Origin: Escherichia coli | GTDB lineage: Bacteria > Pseudomonadota > Gammaproteobacteria > Enterobacterales > Enterobacteriaceae | DNA length: 64,000 bases | Direction: 5' to 3' (one strand) | NCBI RefSeq assembly: GCF_016903815.1 | Contig: NZ_CP069973.1 | Part shown: piece after piece, positions 10,886 to 35,482 of the stretch | Layout: the number at the start of each line of letters is the position of its first letter | Numbering within the stretch: the stretch's first letter is position 1 | Position numbers and translations under genes: made by a program | The notes under the pieces: generated by a model | Database searches by the model: none | Told to the model about the DNA's origin: nothing | The model's input: the letters and a program-made list of their open reading frames with translations, nothing else

Positions 10886-11218
10886 ATGGATGCACAAACA
10901 CGCCGCCGCGAACGTCGCGCAGAGAAACAGGCTCAATGGAAAGCAGCGAATCCCCTGTTGGTTGGGGTAAGCGCAAAACCAGTTAACCGCCCTATTCTCT
11001 CGCTGAATCGCAAACCGAAATCACGAGTAGAAAGCGCACTGAATCCGATAGACCTTACGGTGCTGGCTGAATACCACGAACAGATTGAAAGCAACCTGCA
11101 GCGTATTGAGCGCAAGAATCAGCGCACATGGTACAGCAAGCCACGCAGTGAAATGGGTGTGACTTGCTCAGGCCGCCAGAAGCAACGCGGAAAATCAATT
11201 CCAGCTTATTACGATTGA
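10886..11218 (+). CDS. N: Antiterminator N (lambda type)
   Basis: MDAQTRRRERRAEKQAQWKAANPLLVGVSAKPVNRPILSLNRKPKSRVESALNPIDLTVLAEYH... is lambda N with a divergent C-terminal ~25 aa. Confidence 0.95.
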   Translation: MDAQTRRRERRAEKQAQWKAANPLLVGVSAKPVNRPILSLNRKPKSRVESALNPIDLTVLAEYHEQIESNLQRIERKNQRTWYSKPRSEMGVTCSGRQKQRGKSIPAYYD

Positions 11219-17696: not shown

Positions 17697-17753
17697 TGGC
17701 GGTTTTTTATTGCCTGATTTGCAGGTTCGATTCCCTATTCGGAGATAGCACTC

Positions 17754-17954
17754 ATGCAACACGAACTACAGCCTGATTCACTGGTTGATTTGAAATTCAT
17801 CATGGCCGATACTGGCTTTGGTAAAACCTTCATCTATGACCGGATTAAGTCCGGCGACCTTCCTAAAGCCAAAGTTATCCACGGACGAGCAAGATGGTTA
17901 TATCGTGACCATTGTGAATTTAAAAATAAGCTCTTAAGCCGCGCCAATGGGTAA
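17754..17954 (+). CDS. torI: Excisionase / recombination directionality factor TorI (AlpA/MerR-type wHTH)
   Basis: 66 aa, MQHELQPDSLVDLKFIMADTGFGKTFIYDRIKSGDLPKAKVIHGRARWLYRDHCEFKNKLLSRANG, which I recall as KplE1 TorI. It lies at the prophage end next to the argW core, as in KplE1. Confidence 0.85.
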   Translation: MQHELQPDSLVDLKFIMADTGFGKTFIYDRIKSGDLPKAKVIHGRARWLYRDHCEFKNKLLSRANG

Positions 17955-18027
17955 AATAGCGGGTAAAATATTTCTCACATCTAAAAAACACCATTCCAAT
18001 CAATCCCCTGCCGCTTCAAGTAGATGT

Positions 18028-18043
18028 CTGCAGGGGACACCAT
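18028..18043 (+). repeat. att core: attR of the lambdoid prophage and attL of the adjacent island (argW 3' end)
   Basis: CTGCAGGGGACACCAT equals the last 15 nt of tRNA-Arg(CCU) argW plus T. The preceding sequence is not tRNA-like, so this is a partial copy. Confidence 0.85.
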
Positions 18044-18206
18044 CCCGCTGTACACCAACGTCTACCATTGTCTATAAATCCCATGTAAACATATAAAAAT
18101 AAAGAGATTTTATTCTCATGACGTCCATTTCCGTCTATTGAAATCAAGTAAATCTATGGGGCATAATTAGGGGCATTGCTGGTTCGATTGTATATGTGCC
18201 CCCAAC

Positions 18207-19493
18207 ATGTCCAGAAATACCCTCAACAAATTAACAGACCGTCAGTGCAAAGCAGCTAAGCCACGAGACAAAACTTATAAATTGTCTGATGGTGGTGGTC
18301 TTTATCTTGAAGTATCCCAGACCGGGTCGAAGTATTGGCGAATGAAGTATCGCCGCCCATCAGATAAGAAAGAAGACAGACTTGCTTTTGGTGTATATCC
18401 AACCATTAGCTTACAAGACGCCAGAGAAAAACGAGACAACGCCAAAAAGTTGTTAGTCAAGGGGATAGATCCCAAAGCAGAGCAAAGAGCAGCAAAAGCA
18501 GAAGAAAAAGGCGCATTCACTTTTGAGACAATAGGACGTCAATGGGTTGAAAGCCACCAGATGTGGAACGAAGACCACCGAAAACGCGTACTTAGAAGCC
18601 TTGAAATGTATATTTTCCCTCACATTGGCACTTCGGATATTCGCAAACTGGAGGCGATGACAATTTTACCTTTGTTTAAGAAGGTAGATGACGCCGGGAA
18701 ACACGATACAGCCAACCGACTTAAACAACGAGTTAAGGACATCATACATAGCGCCCGTCTGAGCGGCATTAAGACAGAAATCATCACGAATGATCTCGAT
18801 GTCCGGTTAATGCAATATGAAACTAAGCATCATGCCGCACTACATCCCAGAGATTTACCAGACTTTTTCACTCGATTGGGCAGCTTTAAAGGTAATCCTC
18901 TTACCCGCCTTGCCATTGAGCTAACCATGTTGACATTTGTTCGTTCAAGCGAGTTAAGGTTTGCCCGTTGGAAAGAGTTTGACCTTGATCGGGCTGAGTG
19001 GATTATCCCTAAAAAAAGAGAGCCTATCGATGGTGTGAGGTTTTCCACCCGTGGCACAAAAACGGGAAAAGACGAACATATCGTGCTTCTTAGCCGTCAG
19101 GCTGTTTCTATTGTAAAGCAGTTGAGAGAACTAAGCGGAAGCTACGATGTTGTGTTTCCGAATGAAAGAAACACCAAAGGCGTGATGAGTGAAAACACGG
19201 TAAACAAGGCATTACGCTTAATGGGCTATAACACGCAAGAGGACGTAACTGGACATGGATTCCGTGCCACAGCCTGTAGTTCCCTGATGGAGTCCGGTTT
19301 GTGGCAGGAGGACGCAGTAGAGCGCCAGATGAGCCACAAAGAATATAAAGACGTTAAAAGAGCCTACAAGCACAAGGCTGATTACTTAGAAGAGCGCAAA
19401 CTAATGCTTCAATGGTGGGCAGATTATCTGGACGCCAATCGAGAAATACATATAAGCCCTTACGAGTTCGGAAGGAGAACACGCCGTGACTAA
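18207..19493 (+). CDS. int: Tyrosine integrase, P4/IntS type (DUF4102 arm-binding N-domain)
   Basis: 428 aa. The N-terminus LTDRQCKAAKPRDKTYKLSDGGGLYLEV..GSKYWRMKYR, the catalytic region with HGFRATA, and the C-terminus YLEERKLMLQWWADYLD are all typical of P4-family integrases. Confidence 0.92.
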   Translation: MSRNTLNKLTDRQCKAAKPRDKTYKLSDGGGLYLEVSQTGSKYWRMKYRRPSDKKEDRLAFGVYPTISLQDAREKRDNAKKLLVKGIDPKAEQRAAKAEEKGAFTFETIGRQWVESHQMWNEDHRKRVLRSLEMYIFPHIGTSDIRKLEAMTILPLFKKVDDAGKHDTANRLKQRVKDIIHSARLSGIKTEIITNDLDVRLMQYETKHHAALHPRDLPDFFTRLGSFKGNPLTRLAIELTMLTFVRSSELRFARWKEFDLDRAEWIIPKKREPIDGVRFSTRGTKTGKDEHIVLLSRQAVSIVKQLRELSGSYDVVFPNERNTKGVMSENTVNKALRLMGYNTQEDVTGHGFRATACSSLMESGLWQEDAVERQMSHKEYKDVKRAYKHKADYLEERKLMLQWWADYLDANREIHISPYEFGRRTRRD

Positions 19494-20241
19494 GATGACA
19501 GGACTAGATGCGTTTTATAACGAGTCAGAAGATAAAATCTGGTTTGGTAATCTGATCAGCGAACTGGCAAGACTAAACAATGAAAATGAAAGAATGATCG
19601 CTGCCGCTATCTTAAGTAACTACAGATTGAGCAAAGCTAAACCAGATACTTTAGGGGGGCTGGGCTTTTATCAGTTCGATTGGGTATCAGGTTTTACAAC
19701 TAATGACGACTTTGAAAAGCAGTGTGTGGAGTTTTTAGGTCTTCTGGCTATGGGGCATGAATACAGGGAGAGCCCGATACCGGGGGAAGAAGGGACTTTC
19801 AACGTTAGGAAAGGGGAAGACTTTTTATATCACGATGATGAGGATGATTGGTATGGGTCTTACGATTCGTTTTATTTCAAGCGCTCCGAGGTTGTGAACT
19901 TCTTCCCAGAACTGGATATGAATGTTCCAGATAACGAACCAGAAATTGGAGCACTGTCAAAAAAAGTAGAAAGAGAACAAAACTGGAGAGGAAAAGATAC
20001 GGCTTTAAAGATGATCGCCGGAATGGCGATTGCCTTATTTGAATCAAGCAAAGATTTCCATAGTGGAGGAAACCTTAGTATCAATAGGGTTAGTGCCCAA
20101 GTAATAGAAAACAACATAATATTCGGGAACGATGAAGACAGCGATACCCACCCAGATACATTTCGGAGATTGCTAACGAACGCTTTGGATAAGTACGCCC
20201 CCAAATTTAAGAAAAAAGCAACCAAAAAGCGTCCAAAATAA
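19486..20241 (+). CDS. Hypothetical protein overlapping the int stop; Lys-rich C-terminal tail
   Basis: 251-aa ORF (GTG 19486 or ATG 19495) ending KFKKKATKKRPK. I recognise no family. Confidence 0.6.
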   Translation: MTKMTGLDAFYNESEDKIWFGNLISELARLNNENERMIAAAILSNYRLSKAKPDTLGGLGFYQFDWVSGFTTNDDFEKQCVEFLGLLAMGHEYRESPIPGEEGTFNVRKGEDFLYHDDEDDWYGSYDSFYFKRSEVVNFFPELDMNVPDNEPEIGALSKKVEREQNWRGKDTALKMIAGMAIALFESSKDFHSGGNLSINRVSAQVIENNIIFGNDEDSDTHPDTFRRLLTNALDKYAPKFKKKATKKRPK

Positions 20242-20397: not shown

Positions 20398-20589
20398 ATG
20401 AAAAAGTCGCTGATTCGGCTATCTGAGGTTTTGAAACGCACTGGCTATAGCAAGGCGTGGGTATATGCTCTGATGAGCCGAGGACAATTCCCCCAATCAG
20501 TCAAGATTGGTGCTCGCGCAATAGCTTTTATTGAAAGCGAGATCGATGACTGGATCGATCAACGTATAGCCGAATCGCGTAGTAACTAA
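20398..20589 (+). CDS. AlpA-family transcriptional regulator / excisionase
   Basis: 63 aa. LIRLSEVLKRTGYSKAWVYALMSRGQFPQSVKIGARAIAFIESEIDDWI is the AlpA (HTH_17) pattern. Confidence 0.85.
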   Translation: MKKSLIRLSEVLKRTGYSKAWVYALMSRGQFPQSVKIGARAIAFIESEIDDWIDQRIAESRSN

Positions 20590-20910: not shown

Positions 20911-21105
20911 ATGATTAATTACCTGACCGCTAAAGACGCAGCAGAATATCTTGGCGTCTGTCTGTCACGCTTCTATCAGTTAAAGCGATATATCCGAAGC
21001 TTTCCTCCCTATATAAATCAGACCATCAATGGACGCAAGCGCCGGGTGTGGCTTGCCTCCAGCCTTGATCAATTTGCCGACAGATTTCTGGGGGGACGAA
21101 AATGA
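20911..21105 (+). CDS. Small HTH DNA-binding protein (excisionase-family fold)
   Basis: 64 aa. LTAKDAAEYLGVCLSRFYQLKR is HTH-like. ATGA-coupled to the next ORF. Confidence 0.6.
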   Translation: MINYLTAKDAAEYLGVCLSRFYQLKRYIRSFPPYINQTINGRKRRVWLASSLDQFADRFLGGRK

Positions 21106-21556: not shown

Positions 21557-22609
21557 ATGGAATTATACGATAAAGACGCGAGTCTATCCACAAAATCACA
21601 AGCCGTAATCAATCACATCAATGGTCGCACATTAGCTTATGTGAGATCAGTTACGCACAAACGTAATGAATTAAAGGCGGAGAATAAACGCCAATCATCA
21701 AAGGCTAACCACTGCATACCACCAGCTTGGACAAAGAAGAAATGGCGTACAATGAGGCGAGCTTTGTTTACTCTGGATGTCGAATCAACTAGTGGTATCC
21801 CCTACTCCTTTACCTTCAGACCCGTTAAGGGAACAACGCCAGAGAAATTCAACAAAGCGTTAAAGGCACTTACCAGATGGTTGACTTCGAAAGGCAATCA
21901 GTGGGTTTACGTCATGGAGTGGGCTCAACACCAGTCAGAGCCGCATGTACACGCAATAATTATGGTGAACGAAAGAAGCATTAATGGGCAAGCAGGCAAA
22001 ATTGTCAGCAAATGGGTAACACTGGCAAACAATGCAATCCCATCAAATGTTCCTCCCCAGTGGGATCTAGATTTGAAAGGTCAGCAATATTCAGAGCCTA
22101 CAAGGTGTATAGGTAAACAGATTGATTACATGGCAAAACCCGAAACTAAGTTAAATGACTTTAATAGAGAGGCGAGCAAGAGCCTATATGATTGGTCAGA
22201 TGCCAACGTTTGGGGTTATTCGAATGGCTGGGCGCGGCATGAGATAAAAAAAGAAACACTTTCTATCACTGGCTTTCATGCTGTAAGACGCATACTAAAA
22301 GCCATTCAGGCATCAAGGAAAGACAACTACAAAGTTAAGCGACAGATACAGCGTACATTGAAACGACAAGACATAAATCGCTCACCAATCACCCCGTTCC
22401 AAGCACCGTTAATTAGCAAACACGATTGGGATTTATCAGTGATAGCGGTCACCAAAGAGGCAGAGACAGAGCGCAGGGAGTTACTATCCTCACAGACAAT
22501 AAACTCGAACAAAGTACAAACCCACCCGCTGTTAAGGATGTTAAGAAAAGCACGAGTGAGAGCATCCAGAGCCAGAAGAGAAAGCGGAGGTTATGACCAT
22601 TACTACTAG
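21557..22609 (+). CDS. Putative rolling-circle replication initiator, HUH endonuclease (inovirus Gp2-like)
   Basis: 350 aa with three ordered motifs: ALFTLDV (res 69-75), WVYVMEW...PHVHAIIMV (HUH, res 129-137) and IDYMAKP (Y-x-x-K, res 189-195). The C-terminus is basic. Confidence 0.65.
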   Translation: MELYDKDASLSTKSQAVINHINGRTLAYVRSVTHKRNELKAENKRQSSKANHCIPPAWTKKKWRTMRRALFTLDVESTSGIPYSFTFRPVKGTTPEKFNKALKALTRWLTSKGNQWVYVMEWAQHQSEPHVHAIIMVNERSINGQAGKIVSKWVTLANNAIPSNVPPQWDLDLKGQQYSEPTRCIGKQIDYMAKPETKLNDFNREASKSLYDWSDANVWGYSNGWARHEIKKETLSITGFHAVRRILKAIQASRKDNYKVKRQIQRTLKRQDINRSPITPFQAPLISKHDWDLSVIAVTKEAETERRELLSSQTINSNKVQTHPLLRMLRKARVRASRARRESGGYDHYY

Positions 22610-23252
22610 TAGTGACAGATCGTGACAAGGCAGAGCAAAAAACGACCAATATAAGAGAAATATCCCTGCCCAATCGCCAAAAGCGCGGAGCGCGGAGCGC
22701 GGCAAGCGCCGCGAGAGGCGCAAGAAGGCGAACCTATCCATTGAAACGGTCAGAAGAGCGCATCGCGCTCGATGACCGAAGTCCCCACTAACACCGTTAA
22801 CGAAAGATCAAAGTCTTAGAAAAAAATGACGTTTCTTTGAAGGGCTTCCATCCGTAAAAATCAAATTTTGAGATAAAGTACTTATAGAAATTAATCACTC
22901 TATAAGAGTGAGTTGACGTGAGTTTGAAGTGAGCAACATATTAAAAATATATATAATAATCAAACATATAATAACAACTACTGAGCAAAAATCACCAGAA
23001 AACAACGTCAACGTAACGTCACTCTGTAAGCACTTTTTCAGTCACTTTTTGGGTTGAATACACGTATAAATCCCCAACCATGAAATTTGAGCGCGTAAGC
23101 ACGACTCTGAAAGGCTTTTTATCTTTTAACCATTTAATATACCTGAGGTATTGAAGAAGATTCTGAGACATATACTAGAACTTTACCGTGCACGACTAAC
23201 AACATAAACGTTATATTTATATATAAATCAATGAGATAAATACATCCCCATC

Positions 23253-23284
23253 CAAAAAACAAGCATAACGCAAAATTGCGTTAT
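23253..23284 (-). terminator. Rho-independent terminator of the two-gene cargo operon
   Basis: The minus strand reads ATAACGCAA-TT-TTGCGTTAT followed by GCTTGTTTTTT, about 125 nt after the gene B stop. Confidence 0.7.
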
Positions 23285-23407
23285 CAACTTAAAAGGTACG
23301 ATTGAATCTGACAGTCTGCTCTGAGCGAAATGTGGGCACGTTCACCATAAGTCTCCAGATTGAAACGAAATGATAGTGTTAAATGTTCGATAGTTACTTT
23401 TCTAAGC

Positions 23408-24400
23408 TCAACGTTCGTAATAGTAATCCGACACCTCAGTAAAATCTATTTCCTCCCTAGAAAGTAATGATTCCATCTCATCTAGTTTATCGATTTGAGG
23501 CAAAACACTTGTTGGTGAAATCACAACATTAAAGTCCTCATTATATCGGTGACCTACCCTTGTGAGCTCTTTACCTAATTGCAACAATATATAATCACGT
23601 AAAATAAGTTGATTCCGTCTAAATCGAATAAGACGATAGTAATGGAAGAAATCAGAACATTTTGATGAATCATAATTTCTACCATTCCACCCGGTTTTCC
23701 TCGTAGCTCGGAATAATGCTTGCTCTTGCGTATTTTTCCAAATGCTAAAATCAAAGTGACTTTTCGGGTTAGGATTTTCGTATGTTGCTTGAGGATAAAA
23801 ATTAGTAACACCAAATTGATGCTTGTCAATGATCTTTAAAGTCCGATTTTGTTCAGACAACATCCGCCTTAAGGACCTAGGAATTTCGAAACGCATTAGT
23901 TTGTTTTTATCCAAGATTCTTAATTCTCTTGGAAGCATCTCATGATCCCGTTCTAAATATCTTTCACACCGTTTCGGCACATACTGAAAATACACTGAAA
24001 AAAAACAAAATATATTATCAGAAACGAGAGGAGTAATATGTATTTTTTCTTGCTCAGGAACGTTTTGAACAAAATAGTATGCCGTTCCTTGCCAAATCAA
24101 CGATTGCGCTACTGCCTCCACCAATTCACGTATTGTTTCATCTACCGAGTATTTCCTATATCTAGCTTGTAAATTTCCAAACATTTTACGTATGAGTTCT
24201 TCGTCGTTAGTTTCGACTTGAAACAAATTGGTATCACCGTGATTTACAAAATTAAAAACTCTAGCAAAATCCTCATAAAACATCCTTTGATAGAAACCTG
24301 GTCGTTCATTCTTAGACTTGGTCAATAGTCTATCAACAAAACTTAATTGCTCAGGATCGACGCTATAACCGTAAAGGGGTATATTCTTGATAATTTTCAT
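23408..24400 (-). CDS. Cargo gene B: 330-aa soluble protein of unknown function
   Basis: Long AT-rich ORF, ATGA-overlapped with gene A. No TM segment and no catalytic or DNA-binding motif that I can recognise. Confidence 0.85.
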   Translation of the reverse strand: MKIIKNIPLYGYSVDPEQLSFVDRLLTKSKNERPGFYQRMFYEDFARVFNFVNHGDTNLFQVETNDEELIRKMFGNLQARYRKYSVDETIRELVEAVAQSLIWQGTAYYFVQNVPEQEKIHITPLVSDNIFCFFSVYFQYVPKRCERYLERDHEMLPRELRILDKNKLMRFEIPRSLRRMLSEQNRTLKIIDKHQFGVTNFYPQATYENPNPKSHFDFSIWKNTQEQALFRATRKTGWNGRNYDSSKCSDFFHYYRLIRFRRNQLILRDYILLQLGKELTRVGHRYNEDFNVVISPTSVLPQIDKLDEMESLLSREEIDFTEVSDYYYER

Positions 24401-26862
24401 TCAAAATCCTTATCGTATTCCACGCCAAAACGACGAGCCAACTCACTAACATGGTAATCGATCTTGAAGTCAATTTGCTCGAGTTGCGGGAAAATTTCGA
24501 GAGCACAAAAGAGATGCGATGCATCTGAATGGGAGTTTAAGAACTCTCTGACAACTTTGTTCGTATGAGATTTCCCTCGATTCATTCCCATTTGATCGCT
24601 AAAGCCATCATGTCTTGCGCGGCGCTCAAATTCCATTTTCCAGTTAAGACGAATCATATCTCTCGGTGATGCGCACAAGCTGAAATTGCGCGGATTTGAA
24701 AGAATCATCATTCTCTTCAAATACTGCTGTTTGTTGGGAACAGACTCGAGCCAAGACTTAAACCTATCAAGTACTGTTTTAGATAGTTTTGCATTATCGA
24801 AATAAGCACTGTAAAGGATAGCAAAACCTAGAACTGACATCAGATCGTTGATCGCGGATGAAAGGAGATGCAGTCGAAACTCGTTGTTTATATCGAGTTT
24901 CGGATCTACAAATTTGGTATCTGATGCCAGCAATGAGAGAACCATGAACATAGGGAATACCTTGCTCAGTTTATTTTCATCATTCTGTTCAAGCGCATGT
25001 ATACATTCCTCAGCCAACTCAAAATATATCTGTCCAAAATGATCCGGTAGTTCATCATCTTGCTCTTGTTCAATGATATGTCCCACAATTTCCACCCTAC
25101 CAAGAATAGCTATAGCTTCATCCTGTGTAACGACAAACTGTTTGAGCATTTCAGCAATATTAATTTCTGGTAATGCGTATAGCTTTTCAGAGTAGTGCTC
25201 GTACTTTCTGTATCTCTCCAAGAGCAGAGAAAGTTCATTAAACCAATGGGGAAACTTCAAATGATTATGTAGGCTAGCGAGAACGACTTGCGTTGCGGCT
25301 TCCGGCATCTTCATGTTTATCAGTGAGTTAACGAAATCTGGAACCATGTTTACGTGAAAATCGCATACTTCTGGCAGAATTTTAGAATATTGTTGTAATA
25401 ACTTCTGAACCGCCAACTGCTGGACGTACTTTGGTTTGGATAATCTCTGTCCTTCAATCTCTTTTTCGAATTCGATACGTTCTACGATAAAGGCCAACTC
25501 AACCTGCAGAAAAGCAGGCAAAGTGTGTAGAGAGGTCTCTGTCCAGATATCATCTTTAAAGAACTGCTCCAATTCTTTCTCAAAAGTAATCATGCGGCGT
25601 AACATTTCAAGGCAAAGATTGCTGCCTAATGCAGCCCATGCATCCGCAATTCCAACTTTTATCACCTTTTCCTCAAAATAATTAACGACATCAGACGGTG
25701 TAAAGGCTTTTTCAATGATCGTCTTCATTTTCCGAAGTTCACGTATACCAATATCGAACTGAAACTGTTGTGCATAAGTTAATATACGAGATGAGAATAG
25801 ACTGATGAGATCCAACCCGAGCTTGAAATCACCGGCTTTGAATGCAAGTTCAATATGGCCTACCAACCTATTGATAATTTCATTCTCTAACCAAAGATAA
25901 TTTGGTTCTTCTTCAACCGTTAATTGGCTCCTTGTTTTTAAAGCAATGGATGTTACACTGTCGCCAGCTAAGAACCATTGCTTATGTTTTATTCGTCTAG
26001 GGAACCAGTAACTTTGATAATCAATTCTGTGTTTCTGATTAAGGTAATGAAGAAGTAATGCCGAATAAACATTACTGAGAGCAGGTAAATTATCTCCGAG
26101 TCCTACTTTTTCACATATCAGGCGATCATCAATGTAGTTTAACTGCTCAAAGGCCAAATGTGCGGCTTTAGAGTGATGATTAGCTAAAGATACTGAATTC
26201 TTGGGATTAGACGCACCTTCGATGTGTCGTGCAATTCGTGGGAGTATTTCACTTCGGGCTAACTGATTTAGGTCAAAAAAATTGAATAATCTTTGACCTA
26301 ATGGGAACAGAGCTAAGGAACTAACAAGTGTCAGCAATGTTCCCATTGCATAAACGAAAAGACCGGGTTCAACCCCGAACAAGTGGAGAGCAGTTGCACT
26401 AAGACAAAACACCGCAGAAAGCACTAAAGTCCGCGAATACACATTACCTACCTGCTCGGTAGTAAGCATTTGTATAATATCTCGCCGAAGTCTGGTATAT
26501 CCTGTACTTAGAATGATACCTATTGTAGCAAAGTATATTGAAAATATAGCGGTAAGTATCTGTGCGTACAACCTAAGTTGATCAATATTAAATTTTTTTT
26601 CATCATAGCTAAGAGGATGAAGCAAAATCGTATTATTCCGAATATAATCTTCAACAAAACCCAGTGCAAATAACGTTAATATGACCCATAACAAATTTTT
26701 TAAACCTACCAACGCAAAAGACATAAAAACATGAGCGTTAGACTTAGCTTTAAAAACAGACGTACGATGTATGTATGACGCACGTTCTAAAATAAATCTA
26801 ACCCTCACAAGATCTGTTCTTAATTTCCAGAACCACTTTTGAGAAATAAGCCAAACCTTCAT
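24397..26862 (-). CDS. Cargo gene A: 821-aa membrane protein (4 predicted TM + ~630-aa helical cytoplasmic domain) of unknown function
   Basis: 2.46-kb ORF (ATG 26862; the track uses TTG 26874). Hydrophobic segments at about res 50-75, 107-127, 150-169 and 173-194, with a basic loop TRLRRD between TM2 and TM3. I recognise no domain. Confidence 0.85.
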   Translation of the reverse strand: MKVWLISQKWFWKLRTDLVRVRFILERASYIHRTSVFKAKSNAHVFMSFALVGLKNLLWVILTLFALGFVEDYIRNNTILLHPLSYDEKKFNIDQLRLYAQILTAIFSIYFATIGIILSTGYTRLRRDIIQMLTTEQVGNVYSRTLVLSAVFCLSATALHLFGVEPGLFVYAMGTLLTLVSSLALFPLGQRLFNFFDLNQLARSEILPRIARHIEGASNPKNSVSLANHHSKAAHLAFEQLNYIDDRLICEKVGLGDNLPALSNVYSALLLHYLNQKHRIDYQSYWFPRRIKHKQWFLAGDSVTSIALKTRSQLTVEEEPNYLWLENEIINRLVGHIELAFKAGDFKLGLDLISLFSSRILTYAQQFQFDIGIRELRKMKTIIEKAFTPSDVVNYFEEKVIKVGIADAWAALGSNLCLEMLRRMITFEKELEQFFKDDIWTETSLHTLPAFLQVELAFIVERIEFEKEIEGQRLSKPKYVQQLAVQKLLQQYSKILPEVCDFHVNMVPDFVNSLINMKMPEAATQVVLASLHNHLKFPHWFNELSLLLERYRKYEHYSEKLYALPEINIAEMLKQFVVTQDEAIAILGRVEIVGHIIEQEQDDELPDHFGQIYFELAEECIHALEQNDENKLSKVFPMFMVLSLLASDTKFVDPKLDINNEFRLHLLSSAINDLMSVLGFAILYSAYFDNAKLSKTVLDRFKSWLESVPNKQQYLKRMMILSNPRNFSLCASPRDMIRLNWKMEFERRARHDGFSDQMGMNRGKSHTNKVVREFLNSHSDASHLFCALEIFPQLEQIDFKIDYHVSELARRFGVEYDKDFE

Positions 26863-26973
26863 TATATCAATCAAGTGATACCTGCCTTCTCATCTCTACA
26901 TGCAACATAAAAATGCTTACTATGGTGGCAAACAAAATCAAGAATCATATGTTTGAACACTTTTTACGCACGA

Positions 26974-27566: not shown

Positions 27567-28193
27567 ATGAACGTTAGAATTTACTGCCGAGCATCAACTG
27601 AGGGGCAACACGCTGATCGAGCACTTACCAGCCTACGTGAATTTTCAAAATCAAAAGGCTGGCAGATTGCAGGAGAGTATATAGAAAATGCTAGCGGGGC
27701 GAAGCTTGAGCGCGTAGAGCTTATGCGGCTATTGTCTGAAGCCCAGTCCGGCGATCTGTTGCTAGTGGAAGCTATAGATCGTCTGAGTCGCCTAGAACAT
27801 AGCGCATGGGTCGAACTGAAAGATACGCTCAACCGAAAAGGGTTAATCATCGTATCAATGGATTTACCAACGAGCTGGCAGATGGTCGAGATGGCAGGCA
27901 ATGACCTAACCAGCGGCATCCTGAGAGCCGTAAATGCCATGTTGATTGATATCCTTGCCACAATGGCACGGCAGGATTACGAAACACGTCGTAAACGCCA
28001 ACAGCAAGGCATTGAGCGAGCTAAAAGCGAAGGAATATACATTGGCAGGGAGAAAAATCAGGAAGCCCGAGAGATCGTTAGAGAGATGTTGGAGCAAGGA
28101 GTAAAACCTGAACTCATCATGAAGGCAGCAGGAATCAGCCGAGCGACTTACTACCGTATAAAAAGTGAGCTGTCAGTCGTAAAATCAGAATAA
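27567..28193 (+). CDS. Small serine recombinase (resolvase/invertase family, C-terminal HTH)
   Basis: 208 aa. VRIYCRASTEGQ (catalytic Ser), LLVEAIDRLSR, and the C-terminal HTH AAGISRATYYRIK. Confidence 0.9.
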   Translation: MNVRIYCRASTEGQHADRALTSLREFSKSKGWQIAGEYIENASGAKLERVELMRLLSEAQSGDLLLVEAIDRLSRLEHSAWVELKDTLNRKGLIIVSMDLPTSWQMVEMAGNDLTSGILRAVNAMLIDILATMARQDYETRRKRQQQGIERAKSEGIYIGREKNQEAREIVREMLEQGVKPELIMKAAGISRATYYRIKSELSVVKSE

Positions 28194-28327
28194 CCTTTGA
28201 AAGGTCGTCAGGCTTGTTTCATCTGCTAAAAGCCAGCATTTCTGACCATAATACCTGGGGGCACCTACTGGGGCACCCACCAAAATCGAAAGACAAATAA
28301 GTTATAATTCAATCTGTTAGTTTACTT

Positions 28328-28350
28328 TTCGATTCCTGCAGGGGACACCA
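28328..28350 (+). repeat. Right-end att: 23-nt copy of the argW 3' end (pawZ-like tRNA-Arg pseudogene fragment)
   Basis: TTCGATTCCTGCAGGGGACACCA equals the T-loop through CCA of argW as recalled. There is no upstream tRNA body. Confidence 0.85.
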
Positions 28351-28790
28351 GATACCCTTCAAACCAAATCTACCTTCACCCCGTAAAAGATGGGTTTGGC
28401 GCACACTAGCCCTATATCTACTCATTTTTACTGCAACAGGTTGAAATCTCAGCACTGTCAGAAAGCGCTGATGACTAAACAGCCCTGGGCCGGGCGATGT
28501 AACCATCATACAGAATCCTGATAGCGAAATATGGCGTGACTCGATACTTCACTCTGCAATGCATTCCTTGATGAATTCGCAGGCCCGTGATACTCGGGAC
28601 AGGTCGCTGAATGACGACAATGTCCTGGAAATCAGCGAACCGCGTATCCGGAGTACATTTGAGCGACTGTACCAGAACATGAATGAGGCGTTTGGATTAG
28701 GTGATTATTAGTTGGGCTAAGCATTTTTGTATTATTATTTTCCGGTTGAGGGATATGGAGATATCGACAACAACCGGAAAAAGTTTACGT

Positions 28791-30038
28791 CTATATTGCT
28801 GAAGGTACAGGCGTTTCCATAACTATTTGCTCGCGTTTTTTACTCAGGAAGAAAATGCCAAATAGCAACATCAGGCAGACAATACCCGAAATTGCGAAGA
28901 AAACTGTCTGGTAGCCTGCGTGGTCAAAGAGTATCCCAGTCGGCGTTGAAAGCAGCACAATCCCAAGCGAACTGGCAATTTGAAAACCAATCAGAAAGAT
29001 CGTCGACGACAGGCGCTTATCAAAGTTTGCCACGCTGTATTTGAAGACGGATATGACACAAAGTGGAACCTCAATGGCATGTAACAGCTTCACTAATGAA
29101 ATAATCCAGGGGTTAACGAACAACGCGCAGGAAAGGATACGCAACGCCATAATCACAACACCGATAAGTAATGCATTTTTTGGCCCTACCCGATTCACAA
29201 AGAAAGGAATAATCGCCATGCACAGCGCTTCGAGTACCACCTGGAATGAGTTGAGATAACCATACAGGCGCGTTCCTACATCGTGTGATTCGAATAAACC
29301 TGCATAAAAGACAGGAAAGAGTTGTTGATCAAAAATGTTATAGAAAGACCACGTCCCCACAATAAATATGACGAAAACCCAGAAGTTTCGATCCTTGAAA
29401 ACTGCGATAAAATCCTCTTTTTTTACCCCTCCCGCATCCGCCGCTATGCACTGGTGATCCTTATCTTTAAAACGCATGTTGATCATCATAAATACAGCGC
29501 CAAATAGCGAGACCAACCAGAAGTTGATATGGGGACTGATACTAAAAAATATACCGGCAAAGAACGCGCCAATAGCATAGCCAAAAGATCCCCAGGCGCG
29601 CGCTGTTCCATATTCGAAATGAAAATTTCGCGCCATTTTTTCGGTGAAGCTGTCAAGCAAACCGCATCCCGCCAGATACCCCAGGCCAAAAAAGAGCGCC
29701 CCCAGAATTAGACCTACAGAAAAATTGCTTTGCAGTAACGGTTCATAAACGTAAATCATAAACGGTCCGGTCAAGACCAGAATGAAACTCATACACCAGA
29801 TGAGCGGTTTCTTCAGACCGAGTTTATCCTGAACGATGCCGTAGAACATCATAAATAGAATGCTGGTAAACTGGTTGACCGAATAAAGTGTACCTAATTC
29901 CGTCCCTGTTAATCCTAGATGTCCTTTCAGCCAAATAGCGTATAACGACCACCACAGCGACCAGGAAATAAAAAAGAGAAATGAGTAACTGGATGCAAAA
30001 CGATAGTACGCATTTCTGAATGGAATATTCAGTGCCAT
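28791..30038 (-). CDS. cscB: Sucrose:H+ symporter CscB (MFS, LacY-like)
   Basis: 415 aa, MALNIPFRNAYYRFASSYSFLFFISWSLWWSLYAIWLKG... recognised as CscB. Confidence 0.95.
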   Translation of the reverse strand: MALNIPFRNAYYRFASSYSFLFFISWSLWWSLYAIWLKGHLGLTGTELGTLYSVNQFTSILFMMFYGIVQDKLGLKKPLIWCMSFILVLTGPFMIYVYEPLLQSNFSVGLILGALFFGLGYLAGCGLLDSFTEKMARNFHFEYGTARAWGSFGYAIGAFFAGIFFSISPHINFWLVSLFGAVFMMINMRFKDKDHQCIAADAGGVKKEDFIAVFKDRNFWVFVIFIVGTWSFYNIFDQQLFPVFYAGLFESHDVGTRLYGYLNSFQVVLEALCMAIIPFFVNRVGPKNALLIGVVIMALRILSCALFVNPWIISLVKLLHAIEVPLCVISVFKYSVANFDKRLSSTIFLIGFQIASSLGIVLLSTPTGILFDHAGYQTVFFAISGIVCLMLLFGIFFLSKKREQIVMETPVPSAI

Positions 30039-30099
30039 AATTACCTGCCTGTCGTTAAAAAATTCATGTCCTATTTAGAGATAAGAGCGGCCTCGCCGT

Positions 30100-31023
30100 T
30101 TACTTCTCACCTTCCAGTTCTTGTCGACATGGCAGCGCTGTCATTGCCCCTTTCGCTGTTACTGCAAGCGCTCCGCAACGTTGAGCGAGATTGATAATTC
30201 GTCGCATTTCTCTCTCATCTGTAGATAATCCCGTAGAGGACAGACCTGTGAGTAACCCGGCAACGAACGCATCTCCCGCCCCAGTGCTATCGACACAATT
30301 CACAGACATTCCAGCAAAATGGTGAACTTGTCCTCGATAACAGACCACCACCCCTTCTGCACCTTTAGTCACCAACAGCATGGCGATCTCATACTCTTTT
30401 GCCAGCGCGCATATATCCCGATCGTTCTGTGTTTTTCCACTGATAAGTCGCCATTCTTCTTCCGAGAGCTTGACGACATCCGCCAGTTGTAGCGCCTGCC
30501 GCAAACACAAGCGGAACAAATGCTCGTCTTGCCATAGATCTTCACGAATATTGGGATCGAAGCTGACAAAACCTCCGGCATGCCGGATCGCCGTCATCGC
30601 AGTAAATGCGCTGGTACGCGAAGGCTCGGCAGACAACGCAATTGAACAGAGATGTAACCATTCGCCATGTCGCCAGCAGGGCAAGTCTGTCGTCTCTAAA
30701 AAAAGATCGGCACTGGGGCGGACCATAAACGTAAATGAACGTTCTCCTTGATCGTTCAGATCGACAAGCACCGTGGATGTCCGGTGCCATTCATCTTGCT
30801 TCAGATACGTGATATCGACACCCTCAGTTAGCAGCGTTCTTTGCATTAACGCACCAAAAGGATCATCACCGACCCGACCTATAAACCCACTTGTTCCGCC
30901 TAATCTGGCGATTCCCACCGCAACGTTAGCTGGCGCGCCGCCAGGACAAGGCAGTAGCCGCCCGTCTGATTCTGGCAAGAGATCTACGACCGCATCCCCT
31001 AAAACCCATACTTTGGCTGACAT
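30100..31023 (-). CDS. cscK: Fructokinase CscK (PfkB family)
   Basis: 307 aa. MSAKVWVLGDAVVDLLPE..., GGAPANVA and DSTGAGDAF motifs. Confidence 0.95.
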   Translation of the reverse strand: MSAKVWVLGDAVVDLLPESDGRLLPCPGGAPANVAVGIARLGGTSGFIGRVGDDPFGALMQRTLLTEGVDITYLKQDEWHRTSTVLVDLNDQGERSFTFMVRPSADLFLETTDLPCWRHGEWLHLCSIALSAEPSRTSAFTAMTAIRHAGGFVSFDPNIREDLWQDEHLFRLCLRQALQLADVVKLSEEEWRLISGKTQNDRDICALAKEYEIAMLLVTKGAEGVVVCYRGQVHHFAGMSVNCVDSTGAGDAFVAGLLTGLSSTGLSTDEREMRRIINLAQRCGALAVTAKGAMTALPCRQELEGEK

Positions 31024-31127
31024 TTTTTTCCCTTAAATTCATCTGACTTACGCATAGTGATAAACCTCTTTTTCGCAAAATCGTCATGGATTTACTAAAA
31101 CATGCATATTCGATCACAAAACGTCAT

Positions 31128-31205
31128 AGTTAACGTTAACATTTGTGATATTCATCGCATTTATGAAAGTAATGGACTTTATTTTTATAAAAGTTAACGT
31201 TAACA
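31128..31205. promoter_or_regulatory. Two identical palindromic operators (candidate CscR sites) in the cscKB/cscA divergent promoter region
   Basis: AGTTAACGTTAACA occurs at 31128-31141 and 31192-31205. The core GTTAACGTTAAC is a perfect 12-bp palindrome, as expected for a LacI-family operator. Confidence 0.6.
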
Positions 31206-31238
31206 ATTCACCAAATTTGCTTAACCAGGATGATAAAA

Positions 31239-32672
31239 ATGACGCAATCTCGATTACATGCGGCGCAAAACGCACTAGCAAAACTTCACGAGCGCCGAGG
31301 TAACACTTTCTATCCCCATTTTCACCTCGCGCCTCCTGCCGGGTGGATGAACGATCCAAACGGCCTGATCTGGTTTAACGATCGTTATCACGCGTTTTAT
31401 CAACATCACCCGATGAGCGAACACTGGGGGCCAATGCACTGGGGACATGCCACCAGCGACGATATGATCCACTGGCAGCATAAGCCTATTGCGCTAGCGC
31501 CAGGAGACGAGAATGACAAAGACGGGTGTTTTTCAGGTAGTGCTGTCGATGACAATGGTGTCCTCTCACTTATCTACACCGGACACGTCTGGCTCGATGG
31601 TGCAGGTAATGACGATGCAATTCGCGAAGTACAATGTCTGGCTACCAGTCGGGATGGTATTCATTTCGAGAAACAGGGTGTGATCCTCACTCCACCAGAA
31701 GGAATCATGCACTTCCGCGATCCTAAAGTGTGGCGTGAAGCCGACACATGGTGGATGGTTGTCGGGGCGAAAGATCCAGGCAACACGGGGCAGATCCTGC
31801 TTTATCGCGGCAGTTCATTGCGTGAATGGACCTTCGATCGCGTACTGGCCCACGCTGATGCGGGTGAAAGCTATATGTGGGAATGTCCGGACTTTTTCAG
31901 CCTTGGCGATCAGCATTATCTGATGTTTTCCCCGCAGGGAATGAATGCCGAGGGATACAGTTACCGAAATCGCTTTCAAAGTGGCGTAATACCCGGAATG
32001 TGGTCGCCAGGACGACTTTTTGCACAATCCGGGCATTTTACTGAACTTGATAACGGGCATGACTTTTATGCACCACAAAGCTTTTTAGCGAAGGATGGTC
32101 GGCGTATTGTTATCGGCTGGATGGATATGTGGGAATCGCCAATGCCCTCAAAACGTGAAGGCTGGGCAGGCTGCATGACGCTGGCGCGCGAGCTATCAGA
32201 GAGCAATGGCAAACTTCTACAACGCCCGGTACACGAAGCTGAGTCGTTACGCCAGCAGCATCAATCTATCTCTCCCCGCACAATCAGCAATAAATATGTT
32301 TTGCAGGAAAACGCGCAAGCAGTTGAGATTCAGTTGCAGTGGGCGCTGAAGAACAGTGATGCCGAACATTACGGATTACAGCTCGGCACTGGAATGCGGC
32401 TGTATATTGATAACCAATCTGAGCGACTTGTTTTGTGGCGGTATTACCCACACGAGAATTTAGATGGCTACCGTAGTATTCCCCTCCCGCAGGGTGACAT
32501 GCTCGCCCTAAGGATATTTATCGATACATCATCCGTGGAAGTATTTATTAACGACGGGGAGGCGGTGATGAGTAGCCGAATATATCCGCAGCCAGAAGAA
32601 CGGGAACTGTCGCTCTATGCCTCCCACGGAGTGGCTGTGCTGCAACATGGAGCACTCTGGCAACTGGGTTAA
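31239..32672 (+). CDS. cscA: Sucrose-6-phosphate hydrolase / invertase CscA (GH32)
   Basis: 477 aa from MTQSRLHAAQNALAKLHERRGN, with AGGA 8 nt upstream. Has WMNDPNG, FRDP and ECP GH32 motifs. Confidence 0.95.
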   Translation: MTQSRLHAAQNALAKLHERRGNTFYPHFHLAPPAGWMNDPNGLIWFNDRYHAFYQHHPMSEHWGPMHWGHATSDDMIHWQHKPIALAPGDENDKDGCFSGSAVDDNGVLSLIYTGHVWLDGAGNDDAIREVQCLATSRDGIHFEKQGVILTPPEGIMHFRDPKVWREADTWWMVVGAKDPGNTGQILLYRGSSLREWTFDRVLAHADAGESYMWECPDFFSLGDQHYLMFSPQGMNAEGYSYRNRFQSGVIPGMWSPGRLFAQSGHFTELDNGHDFYAPQSFLAKDGRRIVIGWMDMWESPMPSKREGWAGCMTLARELSESNGKLLQRPVHEAESLRQQHQSISPRTISNKYVLQENAQAVEIQLQWALKNSDAEHYGLQLGTGMRLYIDNQSERLVLWRYYPHENLDGYRSIPLPQGDMLALRIFIDTSSVEVFINDGEAVMSSRIYPQPEERELSLYASHGVAVLQHGALWQLG

Positions 32673-32679
32673 CATAATA

Positions 32680-33675
32680 TCAGGTGGAACAACGGATCAA
32701 CAGCGGGCAAGGGATCCGCGTCACTCTTCCCCCTTCACGATCTTCAATAATATGCAATGCAGCTTCCCGCCCGATAATGTCATGTGGAAGCTGAATTGTG
32801 GTCAGCGGCGGTAAAAACAGATGCCCGACGCCAACCAGATTATCAAAGCCCATTACGGCGACATCCTGCGGGATACGTACCCCCTTCGCCAGGAGAACCT
32901 GATAAGCGACAAAGGCTGCGCGATCGTTACCACATATCAGAACATCAAAATCTGGTTTGCCAGATTTGAAGTGGGCATTGAGTAAACTTGCGAGATCGGT
33001 GTAGTGATCATCACCTGTTGCCATGTGAAATTGTTTCACCTCAGCCAGATCTCGTCCAGCATCACGCCAGGCCTGCTCAAATCCCTGCCGACGATACCCT
33101 GTTGCCAACGCACTTTCCGGTAGCCAGAAGCATAACGGTTGACGATAGCCCGCCGCGAGCAAATGCTGTGTTGATTCATATTGTGCAGTGTAATCATCAG
33201 GGATATAACTGGGTAACGCTGGGTCATCCGCCACACAGTTCGCCAATACAATATTTTCACCATACAGAGACTCAGGCAGCGTGATATGTCGCAGCCCCAT
33301 TGTAGTATAGATAATGCCATCCGGACGGTGGGCAAGCAGCTGACGAGCAGCACGGGCAGCGTCATCTTCAGAAAAAATATTGATTAAAAAACTATTCCAG
33401 CCGAACTCGCTGGCGGTTTGCTCAATGGCAAGCAGAATATCAACAGAGAAAGGAGTGGTAGCAGTGTCCTGCGCCAGCACGGCGAGAGTCGACGGCTTAC
33501 GTCCTTGAGCGCGCATCTTACGGGCGGAAAGATCAGGAACATAATTCAGGGTCTGGATTGCCTGCAATACGCGGTCACGCGTTGCAGGACGCACAGATTC
33601 TGCATTATGCATCACCCGGGAGACTGTCATCATCGACACTCCCGCCAGGCGTGCGACATCCTTTAATGAAGCCAT
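32680..33675 (-). CDS. cscR: LacI-family repressor CscR
   Basis: 331 aa from the internal Met, MASLKDVARLAGVSMMTVSRVMHN... The 397-aa track ORF has a non-homologous N-terminal extension. Confidence 0.92.
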   Translation of the reverse strand: MASLKDVARLAGVSMMTVSRVMHNAESVRPATRDRVLQAIQTLNYVPDLSARKMRAQGRKPSTLAVLAQDTATTPFSVDILLAIEQTASEFGWNSFLINIFSEDDAARAARQLLAHRPDGIIYTTMGLRHITLPESLYGENIVLANCVADDPALPSYIPDDYTAQYESTQHLLAAGYRQPLCFWLPESALATGYRRQGFEQAWRDAGRDLAEVKQFHMATGDDHYTDLASLLNAHFKSGKPDFDVLICGNDRAAFVAYQVLLAKGVRIPQDVAVMGFDNLVGVGHLFLPPLTTIQLPHDIIGREAALHIIEDREGGRVTRIPCPLLIRCST

Positions 33676-33917
33676 ACCCAAGCCGTTTGCCGTAAAACGG
33701 GCACTGTAGCAGAAACAGACGTCACTGGCGAGATCCAACGATATTCTCGACGCCCTATCACCCGACACGGCAATACAATAAAAAATAACAATAATTCCCG
33801 GACAATTGTACCCAATTCCGCCTCTGTTCTCGCCAACGAGTAACCATGTAGGCAAGTAGGTAAAACATGCCAACTGGCATCGCCAACCTGGAGAAGAAAA
33901 TATAAATATGGATCATT

Positions 33918-34136
33918 GTGCTGCCGCTGTATCCCGACATCAGCCCGGAAATTATTGCGATTGCTATCGGTTCAGGTGCGATTGGCTGCACGATCGTTAC
34001 GGACTCGCTTTTCTGGCTGGTGAAGCAATATTGCGGCGCTACGCTCAATGAAACATTTAAATACTATACGACCGCGACATTTATCGCTTCAGTCGTCGCT
34101 CTGGCGGGCACATTCCTGCTGTCATTTATCATCTAA
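33918..34136 (+). pseudogene. dsdX: dsdX 3' remnant (D-serine transporter, GntP family), truncated by the csc islet
   Basis: [71 protein letters not shown] is the C-terminus of DsdX. There is no upstream remainder and no dsdC. Confidence 0.85.
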
Positions 34137-34153
34137 GCGCAAAGAGACGTACT

Positions 34154-35482
34154 ATGGAAAACGCTAAAATGAACTCGCTCATCGCCCAGTATCCGTTGGT
34201 AAAGGATCTGGTTGCTCTTCAAGAAACCACCTGGTTTAATCCTGGCACGACCTCATTGGCTGAAGGTTTACCTTATGTTGGCCTGACCGAACAGGATGTT
34301 CAGGACGCCCATGCGCGCTTATCCCGTTTTGCAGCCTATCTGGCAAAAGCATTTCCTGAAACTGCTGCTACTGGGGGGATTATTGAATCAGAACTGGTTG
34401 CCATTCCGGCTATGCAAAAACGGCTGGAAAAGGAATATCAACAACCGATCAGCGGGCAACTGCTACTGAAAAAAGATAGCCATTTGCCCATTTCCGGCTC
34501 CATAAAAGCACGCGGCGGGATTTATGAAGTCCTGGCACATGCAGAAAAACTGGCTCTGGAAGCGGGGTTGCTGACGCTTGAAGATGACTACAGCAAACTG
34601 CTTTCTCCGGAGTTTAAACAGTTCTTTAGCCAATACAGCATTGCTGTGGGCTCAACCGGAAATCTGGGGTTATCAATCGGCATTATGAGCGCCCGCATTG
34701 GCTTTAAGGTGACAGTACATATGTCTGCTGATGCCCGGGCATGGAAAAAAGCGAAACTGCGCAGCCATGGCGTTACGGTCGTGGAATATGAGCAAGATTA
34801 TGGTGTTGCAGTCGAGGAAGGACGTAAAGCAGCGCAGTCTGACCCGAACTGTTTCTTTATTGATGACGAGAATTCCCGCACGTTGTTCCTTGGGTATTCC
34901 GTCGCTGGCCAGCGTCTTAAAGCGCAATTTGCCGAGCAAAGTCGTATTGTCGATGCTGATAACCCTCTGTTTGTCTATCTGCCGTGTGGTGTTGGCGGTG
35001 GTCCTGGTGGCGTCGCATTCGGGCTTAAACTGGCATTTGGCGATCATGTTCACTGCTTTTTTGCCGAACCAACGCACTCCCCTTGTATGCTGTTAGGCGT
35101 CCATACAGGATTACACGATCAGATTTCTGTTCAGGATATTGGTATCGACAACCTTACCGCAGCGGATGGCCTTGCAGTTGGTCGCGCATCAGGCTTTGTC
35201 GGGCGGGCAATGGAGCGTCTACTGGATGGCTTCTATACCCTTAGCGATCAAACCATGTATGACATGCTTGGCTGGCTGGCGCAGGAAGAAGGCATTCGTC
35301 TTGAACCTTCGGCACTGGCGGGTATGGCCGGGCCTCAGCGCGTGTGCGCATCAGTAAGTTACCAACAGATGCACGGTTTCAGCGCAGAACAACTGCGTAA
35401 TGCCACTCATCTGGTGTGGGCGACGGGAGGTGGAATGGTGCCGGAAGAAGAGATGGAGCAATATCTGGCAAAAGGCCGCTAA
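34154..35482 (+). CDS. dsdA: D-serine ammonia-lyase (dehydratase)
   Basis: 442 aa, [22 protein letters not shown]...SGSIKARGG (PLP Lys motif). Confidence 0.97.

Follow-up and report, generated by a model that had tools for sequence, protein, structure and literature searches.

The question raised by this locus is how a gene order typical of a single recombination module came to stand between two mobile elements, and whether the two are coupled. The window analyzed here, a stretch of 64,000 nt from the Escherichia coli contig NZ_CP069973.1 (positions are given in whole-stretch numbering), carries a torI excisionase gene, a 16-nt attachment (att) core and a tyrosine integrase gene, in this order and all on the plus strand (Table 1). 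A sequence-only reading had pointed out that torI-att-int is the order found in the circular form of KplE1-type elements and had proposed that the right attachment site (attR) of a prophage doubles here as the left site (attL) of a genomic island. It had further suggested that TorI could couple excision of the island to prophage induction and that both elements could move as one unit. From the sequence, we consider it highly probable that the locus is a tandem array produced by two independent site-specific integrations at the 3' end of the tRNA-Arg gene argW. The gene order simply follows from the use of one site by both elements, in an ordinary tandem accretion.

Positions 1 to 39600 of the window match E. 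coli strain 2779 (NZ_CP103521.1) with 0 mismatches. In that strain, the order is yfdC, argW, intS, an approximately 39-kb P22/HK620-like prophage, torI, the core and a 10.3-kb island, followed on the right by 23 nt copied from the 3' end of argW and then by a DUF4942 gene fragment, the csc genes, dsdA, emrYK, and evgAS. Strain 7/2 has the same layout. argW and intS are not part of the window, being found about 21 kb further left in strain 2779, and a tRNA scan and an Rfam scan of the window gave no matches.

The torI product is identical (100%, full length) to TorI of PDB entry 1Z4H, and the same protein is 100% identical to HK620 HkaC, Sf6 gp18, and Kapi1 Xis. torI is the final gene ahead of the prophage attR, and the prophage IntS shares 99.2% identity with K-12 IntS. 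The core, CTGCAGGGGACACCAT, equals the 16-nt sequence published for KplE1, which derives from the 3' end of argW (PMC2951348). The positions that the sequence-only reading gave for the excisionase gene, the core and the integrase gene were exact. In K-12, intS and torI occupy opposite ends of the prophage; a synthetic torI-core-P' arm-intS junction matched 17 phage genomes at 100% coverage, HK620 and Sf6 among them. These data confirm that torI-att-int is the circular-form order of KplE1-type elements.

Three direct copies of the core bound the two elements: one at argW (outside the window), one between torI and the island integrase gene (int), and one at the right end of the island. The latter two are the copies found in the window at ≤2 mismatches, versus 0.03 expected by chance, and CTGCAGGGGACACCA is common to all three sites. 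The argW site reads TTGCAGGTTCGATTCC TGCAGGGGACACCA and continues into TTTATCAG, the phage P' arm; this intS-proximal arm carries TTTATCAGTTCG. The middle site reads AAGTAGATGTC TGCAGGGGACACCA followed by TCCCGCTG, with the phage P arm on the left and the island P' arm on the right. The right site reads TTTACTTTTCGATTCC TGCAGGGGACACCA followed by GATACCC, with the island P arm on the left and the native flank on the right. The 23-nt argW copy in the island attR is the direct-repeat partner of argW in an island-only strain, 98200. The middle and right sites of the array share 15 nt, whereas the island-only direct repeat is 23 nt long.

To place these junctions in a population, we surveyed 5426 complete E. 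coli genomes. The empty junction, in which argW is joined to the native flank, was present in 1415 genomes, the torI-core-flank junction of a prophage alone in 372, argW joined to the island in 196, and the tandem torI-core-island int junction in 28; the reverse order, island right end-core-intS, was seen in 4. The 28 tandem genomes comprise at least five different prophage/island contexts. Moreover, a single clone holds all four states, the flanks being free of mismatches over at least 12 kb. Strain 98210 is empty; strain 98200 carries the island only, with 0 mismatches across the island too; strain 98192 carries the prophage only and shows identity across 6868 nt of the left side and 20 kb of the right side; strains 2779 and 7/2 carry the tandem. 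These data indicate that both elements were gained or lost precisely and recently. Because the clone-mates differ only by the precise presence or absence of either element, the middle site is the prophage attR and the island attL at once, as had been proposed.

The crossover point of the island could be read from two related genomes of STEC (E. coli that produce Shiga toxin), including 2013C-3342, in which a 97%-identical island is nested in a lambdoid prophage, 10 nt upstream of torI. The insertion point corresponds to that between positions 17743 and 17744 of the window (L005 12060-12110 and 22590-22620) and cuts torI off from its upstream promoters. HK620-type phages carry, 20 nt upstream of torI, the 16-nt copy of the argW T-arm that stands uninterrupted in the window. 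Both junctions of the nested island switch parent at GGGGA^CACCA, which places one strand-exchange point inside the shared core, the mapping being that of one event seen in 2 genomes. Thus, in this single event, the island integrase would have acted on the same core as IntS and not on a different one. A crossover in the T-loop (TTCGATT), considered from the 23-nt argW identity, was rejected, since the 9 nt after TTCGATTCC stay with the parent at both junctions. The STEC site has 16 nt of T-arm identity and little at the crossover, which suggests that the T-arm is important for recognition by the island integrase; the hybrid site in the window is without that part.

The recombination modules on the two sides of the core differ. 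The sequence-only reading had advised comparing the two integrases; aligned, they share 32% identity over 407 positions (E=3e-63), and the island enzyme is not closely similar to IntS, the protein that TorI contacts. The prophage arm repeat is GGGTAAAA, and the two GGGTAAAATA repeats of the phage P arm are identical to the attP repeat annotated in HK620. The island arms carry GGGGCA, with 5 of the 15 copies in the window falling within these two arms (P about 6e-9), and the GGGGCA sites are kept in the variant island of L005, whose arms are ~90% identical. Neither GGGTAAAA nor GGGGCA occurs in the arms of the other element; a search of the two island arms for IntS arm-type sites (GGGTAAAA or GGATAAAA) found none. 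The geometry is nonetheless alike: the arm repeats of the island stand 115, 127, and 154 nt away from the core, those of IntS 117, 128, and 139/154 nt, and the distance from core to ATG is 163 nt in the island versus 160 nt in the IntS module. The two modules look like diverged relatives that kept the crossover sequence and changed their arm specificity.

The sites for the recombination directionality factor (RDF) are divided in the same way. Five TorI sites (GTTCG, GATCG, GTCCG) have been mapped on the KplE1 arm between the core and intS (PMC2951348), and we recounted these pentamers at offsets 8, 28, 71, 81, and 91 in K-12 and 7/2. In strain 2779, intS sits next to argW with the five TorI sites and the IntS P' sites between them (sites counted in 7/2 and K-12). 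In the array, the TorI-site arm therefore adjoins argW, and 39 kb separate it from the shared site. There, the phage arm is devoid of TorI pentamers, and the island arm has 1 versus 0.73 expected, which is chance level, compared to 5 in the KplE1 arm. The island arm instead carries four direct YGTCYAY repeats; 4 of the 21 plus-strand copies in the 64 kb lie within this 163-nt arm, for a motif picked after inspection of the sequence. The L005 variant keeps these repeats at unchanged offsets, and the KplE1 arm, which has TorI sites there, lacks them. The repeats are candidate binding sites for the island's own RDF. The promoter-like site upstream of island int has a layout like that of the autoregulated PintS (PMC2951348).

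A simple scheme would account for these observations. The first element is an approximately 39-kb HK620/Sf6-type lambdoid prophage with intS beside argW and torI last before attR, and the second a 10.3-kb island with a P4-type integrase whose gene comes first after attL. Both integrases would exchange strands within the same 15-16 nt of argW, so that a second arrival would land beside the first and create a hybrid site made of the phage P arm, the core, and the island P' arm. torI-core-int would mimic a phage attP because both elements keep their integrase gene tRNA-proximal and in the same orientation. The prophage module would comprise IntS, TorI, the GGGTAAAA arm sites, and the TorI sites on the intS-side arm; the island module would comprise its own Int, an AlpA-type protein, the GGGGCA arm sites, and the YGTCYAY repeats. 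IntS and TorI would recombine the argW site with the middle site, releasing the prophage and restoring a perfect 23-nt island attL, and island Int and AlpA would recombine the middle site with the right site, releasing the island and leaving torI-core-flank. The anatomy of the sites stands in the sequence, and every predicted end state occurs in natural clone-mates; from these we infer the pairing of proteins with repeats and an efficient action of island Int on the hybrid site. Altogether, the two elements look independent.

Several points weigh against this independence. The four states could come from repeated phage infection of island-plus and island-minus sisters and not from excision out of an array. 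Excision of the island from the array may also be impaired, as its attL there keeps 15 of 23 nt and the T-loop part is phage arm. AlpA-family proteins replace this exact TorI in Kapi1 excision (ISME J 2025, PMC11773190), a study that cites V. cholerae island RDFs as further RDF cross-talk. In addition, the GTCCA/GTCTA of the island repeats bears a partial resemblance to the TorI site GTCCG, and one GTTCG (18182) is kept in the variant island. The replacement by AlpA proteins of low identity and the resemblance of the repeats also speak for a direct coupling, in which prophage TorI and the island integrase would act jointly on the shared site, TorI as the directionality factor, and induction would directly trigger island excision. 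To these can be added that the island AlpA falls in the same PHROG as TorI (phrog_66), with 32% identity over 38 aa in the helix-turn-helix region. We nevertheless hold this coupling to be quite unlikely. The five TorI sites that have been mapped all lie on the intS-proximal arm and not at the shared site, where the pentamer counts are nil on the phage arm and at chance level on the island arm. The island has an AlpA of its own; TorI also acts by contacting IntS (PMC3509656), to which island Int is 32% identical; and in the case of MP1 no heterologous integrase could substitute (PMC11773190). Nor is co-occurrence of island and prophage above expectation in the 5426 genomes: the prophage is present in 12.5% of island carriers versus 20.8% of island-free sites (odds ratio of 0.54), all values being uncorrected for clonal structure. 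The published cross-talk of Kapi1 Xis with AlpA_1 and AlpA_5 of EcCIMP1 (PMC11773190) resembles the present case in the phage RDF, which is the same, and in the partner AlpA, which comes from an island with a P4-type integrase. However, the island AlpA there aids phage excision, whereas the sequence-only reading proposed the reverse, and the elements are not in tandem, EcCIMP1 being flanked by proA and yagU.

Movement of both elements as one unit would require recombination between the outer sites, the argW/intS arm and the island attR, to give a circle of ~49 kb. The sequence shared by all three sites, the existence of empty-site clone-mates, and the circularization of whole tandems of a phage and an ICE (integrative and conjugative element) by phage integrases in Streptococcus (PMC13651849) are in its favor. 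The arms of the outer sites differ, however, with IntS/TorI sites on the left and GGGGCA on the right, so that an excisive complex would depend on cooperation between two 32%-identical integrases, and the empty site follows just as well from two separate excisions. A circle of ~49 kb would also exceed a P22-type head, and we regard joint movement as most improbable. Taken together, neither TorI-driven island excision nor joint movement of the two elements is supported by the sequence. Another alternative is that the array traps the island: the hybrid attL is without the T-loop part TTCGATTC, and efficient excision would occur only after the prophage leaves and the complete site is re-formed. 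The shorter repeat between the middle and right sites (15 versus 23 nt) and the T-arm identity of the STEC site fit such a trap. On the other hand, the hybrid site still has the crossover GGGGA^CACCA, weak core sites are usually compensated by arm-bound Int in lambda excision, and the prophage-only strain 98192, where identity extends over 6.9 kb to the left and 20 kb to the right, is consistent with an array having lost its island. We consider trapping unlikely. The coupling could also be transcriptional: upon induction, N-antiterminated pL transcripts, and likewise CII-promoter transcripts, would pass from torI across the hybrid site into island genes, and island recombination functions would rise in the tandem state only. 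Normally, these transcripts traverse attP and express intS. A lambda-type N gene, annotated as 'antitermination protein N' in strain 2779, and all open reading frames (ORFs) from N to torI are on the plus strand, and island int, the 251-aa ORF (orf251), alpA, and rep are co-oriented with them. The HK620 record has a CII-activated 'promoter: phage integration' reading through torI (hkaC), then att (attP), then int, and its sequence is unchanged in the window at ~17709-17747. A simple consensus scan detected no plus-strand terminator-like hairpin between the torI stop codon and the int ATG. Read-through from pL into flanking host genes is classical lambda biology, known as 'escape synthesis'. 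Against this stand the purely inferential nature of the coupling, the simplicity of the terminator scan, the prospect that quick prophage excision would disconnect torI from the island, and the island int promoter, which probably autoregulates, excess Int being known to lower excision in KplE1 (PMC2951348). We treat it as a tentative possibility, and read-through from the phage promoters into island int would be a better coupling candidate than TorI. It is doubtful that position alone makes the island phage-inducible, through read-through into int, alpA, and rep, with TorI and AlpA possibly cross-acting in either direction; if it does, induction of an HK620-like prophage would switch on excision of a neighbor without a sensing circuit of its own.

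Two independent integrations at argW, the reading that we prefer, can be compared with known systems. The prophage is a full member of the KplE1 (CPS-53)/HK620/Sf6/Kapi1 module, with TorI, the core, the arm repeats, and intS beside argW. The array differs from that module in that the integrase gene after the core is not intS but that of a 32%-identical paralogue belonging to a second element, and in that the island arm has different repeats and is without the TorI-site cluster. The lambda and HK022 integrases are likewise related heterobivalent enzymes that have one class of binding site in common and not the other. Between lambda and HK022, the arm sites and Xis are shared and core specificity differs, whereas the present pair has the core in common and differs in its arm sites. 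As in arrays of ICEs and cis-mobilizable elements (CIMEs) and in phage-ICE tandems (PMC13651849), two elements abut, the att site between them is hybrid, there are three core repeats, and each element is also found alone; the partner here, in contrast, is a small nonconjugative island. Cross-module excision by a phage integrase has been shown in Streptococcus (Sci Adv 2026, PMC13651849), and the distinct arm repeats of the present array argue against it here. One of the reverse-order genomes, strain S163-2 (L004 8334-15619), holds a complex array with IS1, in the order argW, intS, O-antigen polymerase, IS1, island right end, core, second intS, and a different prophage. This array indicates that IntS-type phages can also use the island attR and that arrays can exceed two elements.

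Table 1. Features of the prophage end and the island, with positions in the 64,000-nt window
Feature	Position	Strand	Details
Lambda-type N antiterminator gene	10886..11218	+	Pfam N36, E=1.6e-26; head of the early-left operon that ends with torI
CII box TTGC-N5-TTGC	17710..17722	+	Same sequence as in the HK620 GenBank features 'cII protein' and 'promoter: phage integration'
argW T-arm look-alike	17719..17743	+	16 nt, TTGCAGGTTCGATTCC, identical to argW; uninterrupted in the window; overlaps the CII box
torI	17754..17954	+	ATG...TAA ORF, 66 aa; RDF of the HK620/KplE1-type prophage
Two IntS arm-type sites GGGTAAAATA	17949..17970 (17949, 17961)	+	12-nt spacing; phage P arm
Shared 16-nt core CTGCAGGGGACACCAT	18028..18043	+	Hybrid att site; left, phage attR arm; right, island attL arm
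Four direct YGTCYAY repeats	18059..18138 (18059, 18069, 18122, 18132)	+	Two pairs; candidate island RDF sites
Promoter-like site for island int	18138..18167	+	TTGAAA-18-CATAAT; putative; −10 overlaps an arm repeat
Island Int arm-type repeats GGGGCA	18158..18202 (18158, 18170, 18197)	+, +, -	Island P' arm
Island tyrosine integrase gene, P4/CP4 type	18207..19493	+	428 aa; Pfam Arm-DNA-bind_3, Phage_int_M, Phage_integrase
251-aa island ORF	19486..20241	+	Overlaps int at its stop codon; Pfam, PHROGs, NCBIfam, and PADLOC gave no match
AlpA-family winged-helix protein gene	20398..20589	+	Pfam Phage_AlpA, E=3.6e-18; candidate island RDF/regulator
Second small DNA-binding protein gene	20911..21105	+	Pfam HTH_17
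Rolling-circle Rep/HUH-type protein gene	21557..22609	+	Pfam REP_ORF2-G2P, E=7.6e-7; phrog_30534, E=3e-151
Two cargo genes	23408..26874	-	330 aa and 825 aa; overlapping, co-oriented; GC 36-39%
Serine recombinase gene (resolvase/invertase family)	27567..28193	+	Pfam Resolvase, E=2.2e-23; island right end
Two island Int arm-type repeats GGGGCA	28258..28275 (28258, 28270)	+	12-nt spacing; island P arm
Island attR, second core copy	28328..28351	+	23-nt argW 3' end copy TTCGATTCCTGCAGGGGACACCA at 28328-28350; core at 28336-28351, 15/16

The gene content of the island resembles that of P4/CP4-57-type islands at its integrase end (Table 1). The domain composition of the integrase, its tRNA-adjacent position and orientation, the alpA gene downstream, the direct repeat of a tRNA 3' end, and a promoter-like int site lying over the arm repeats are features in common; RefSeq gives the same start, 18207, for the integrase gene. 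In contrast to P4, no primase-helicase, sid, psu, or delta gene was detected, and the island has instead a rolling-circle Rep, low-GC cargo, and a serine recombinase. The HTH_17 protein gave no alignment with TorI. The two cargo genes had no match in Pfam, PADLOC, PHROGs, or NCBIfam and may form an undescribed defense or accessory system of the island. A search for iterons in the 800-nt ORF-poor stretch at 22610-23407 found none. The island had no match in the 'phages' collection, and literature searches gave no description of this island at argW.

We considered the island as a P4-like satellite or phage-inducible chromosomal island (PICI) of the HK620-like phage and rejected this, as Pfam, PHROGs, and NCBIfam searches found no primase/helicase or packaging-hijack genes and as there is no co-occurrence enrichment with the prophage. 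Lateral transduction of the island by the P22-type prophage was rejected as well, the late genes and terminase being on the minus strand and pointing toward argW. P22 packaging follows the direction of the late genes; if the same holds here, packaging would move away from the island.

Several features of the prophage deserve mention. A 49-aa ORF at 17947-18096, equivalent to HK620 hkaB, spans the core; its C-terminal part is island DNA in the array, and it would be chimeric here if it is a real gene. In strain 2779, an IS2 element lies within the prophage structural-gene region (L008 6276-7504, left of the window), so that this prophage may excise but might not make virions. Among the clone-mates 7/2, 2779, and 98192 (L001, L007, and L009), the prophage right ends and late regions are identical, whereas the repressor, CII, and replication modules differ, which suggests recombination or repeated lysogenization within the clone.

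On the other side of the island, the interval from its attR to cscB (28352-28790) contains a 183-nt fragment of a DUF4942 gene. In about 1400 genomes, this fragment forms the native flank of argW, and it appears to be left over from an older island. The csc sucrose regulon (28791-35482) takes the place of dsdC and most of dsdX beside argW, a known variant (cited in PMC3032704).

If the prophage and the island are independent, as their sites and modules suggest, the locus would clearly illustrate how composite islands are built at tRNA hot spots, and it would explain how a gene order can arise that is mistakable for a single recombination module. The clinical clone-mates in four states provide a convenient natural test bed in which two co-resident systems have the crossover and the geometry in common and differ in arm specificity. 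In this setting, it can be asked to what extent co-resident pairs of integrase and RDF engage in cross-talk and whether prophage read-through can activate a neighboring island.

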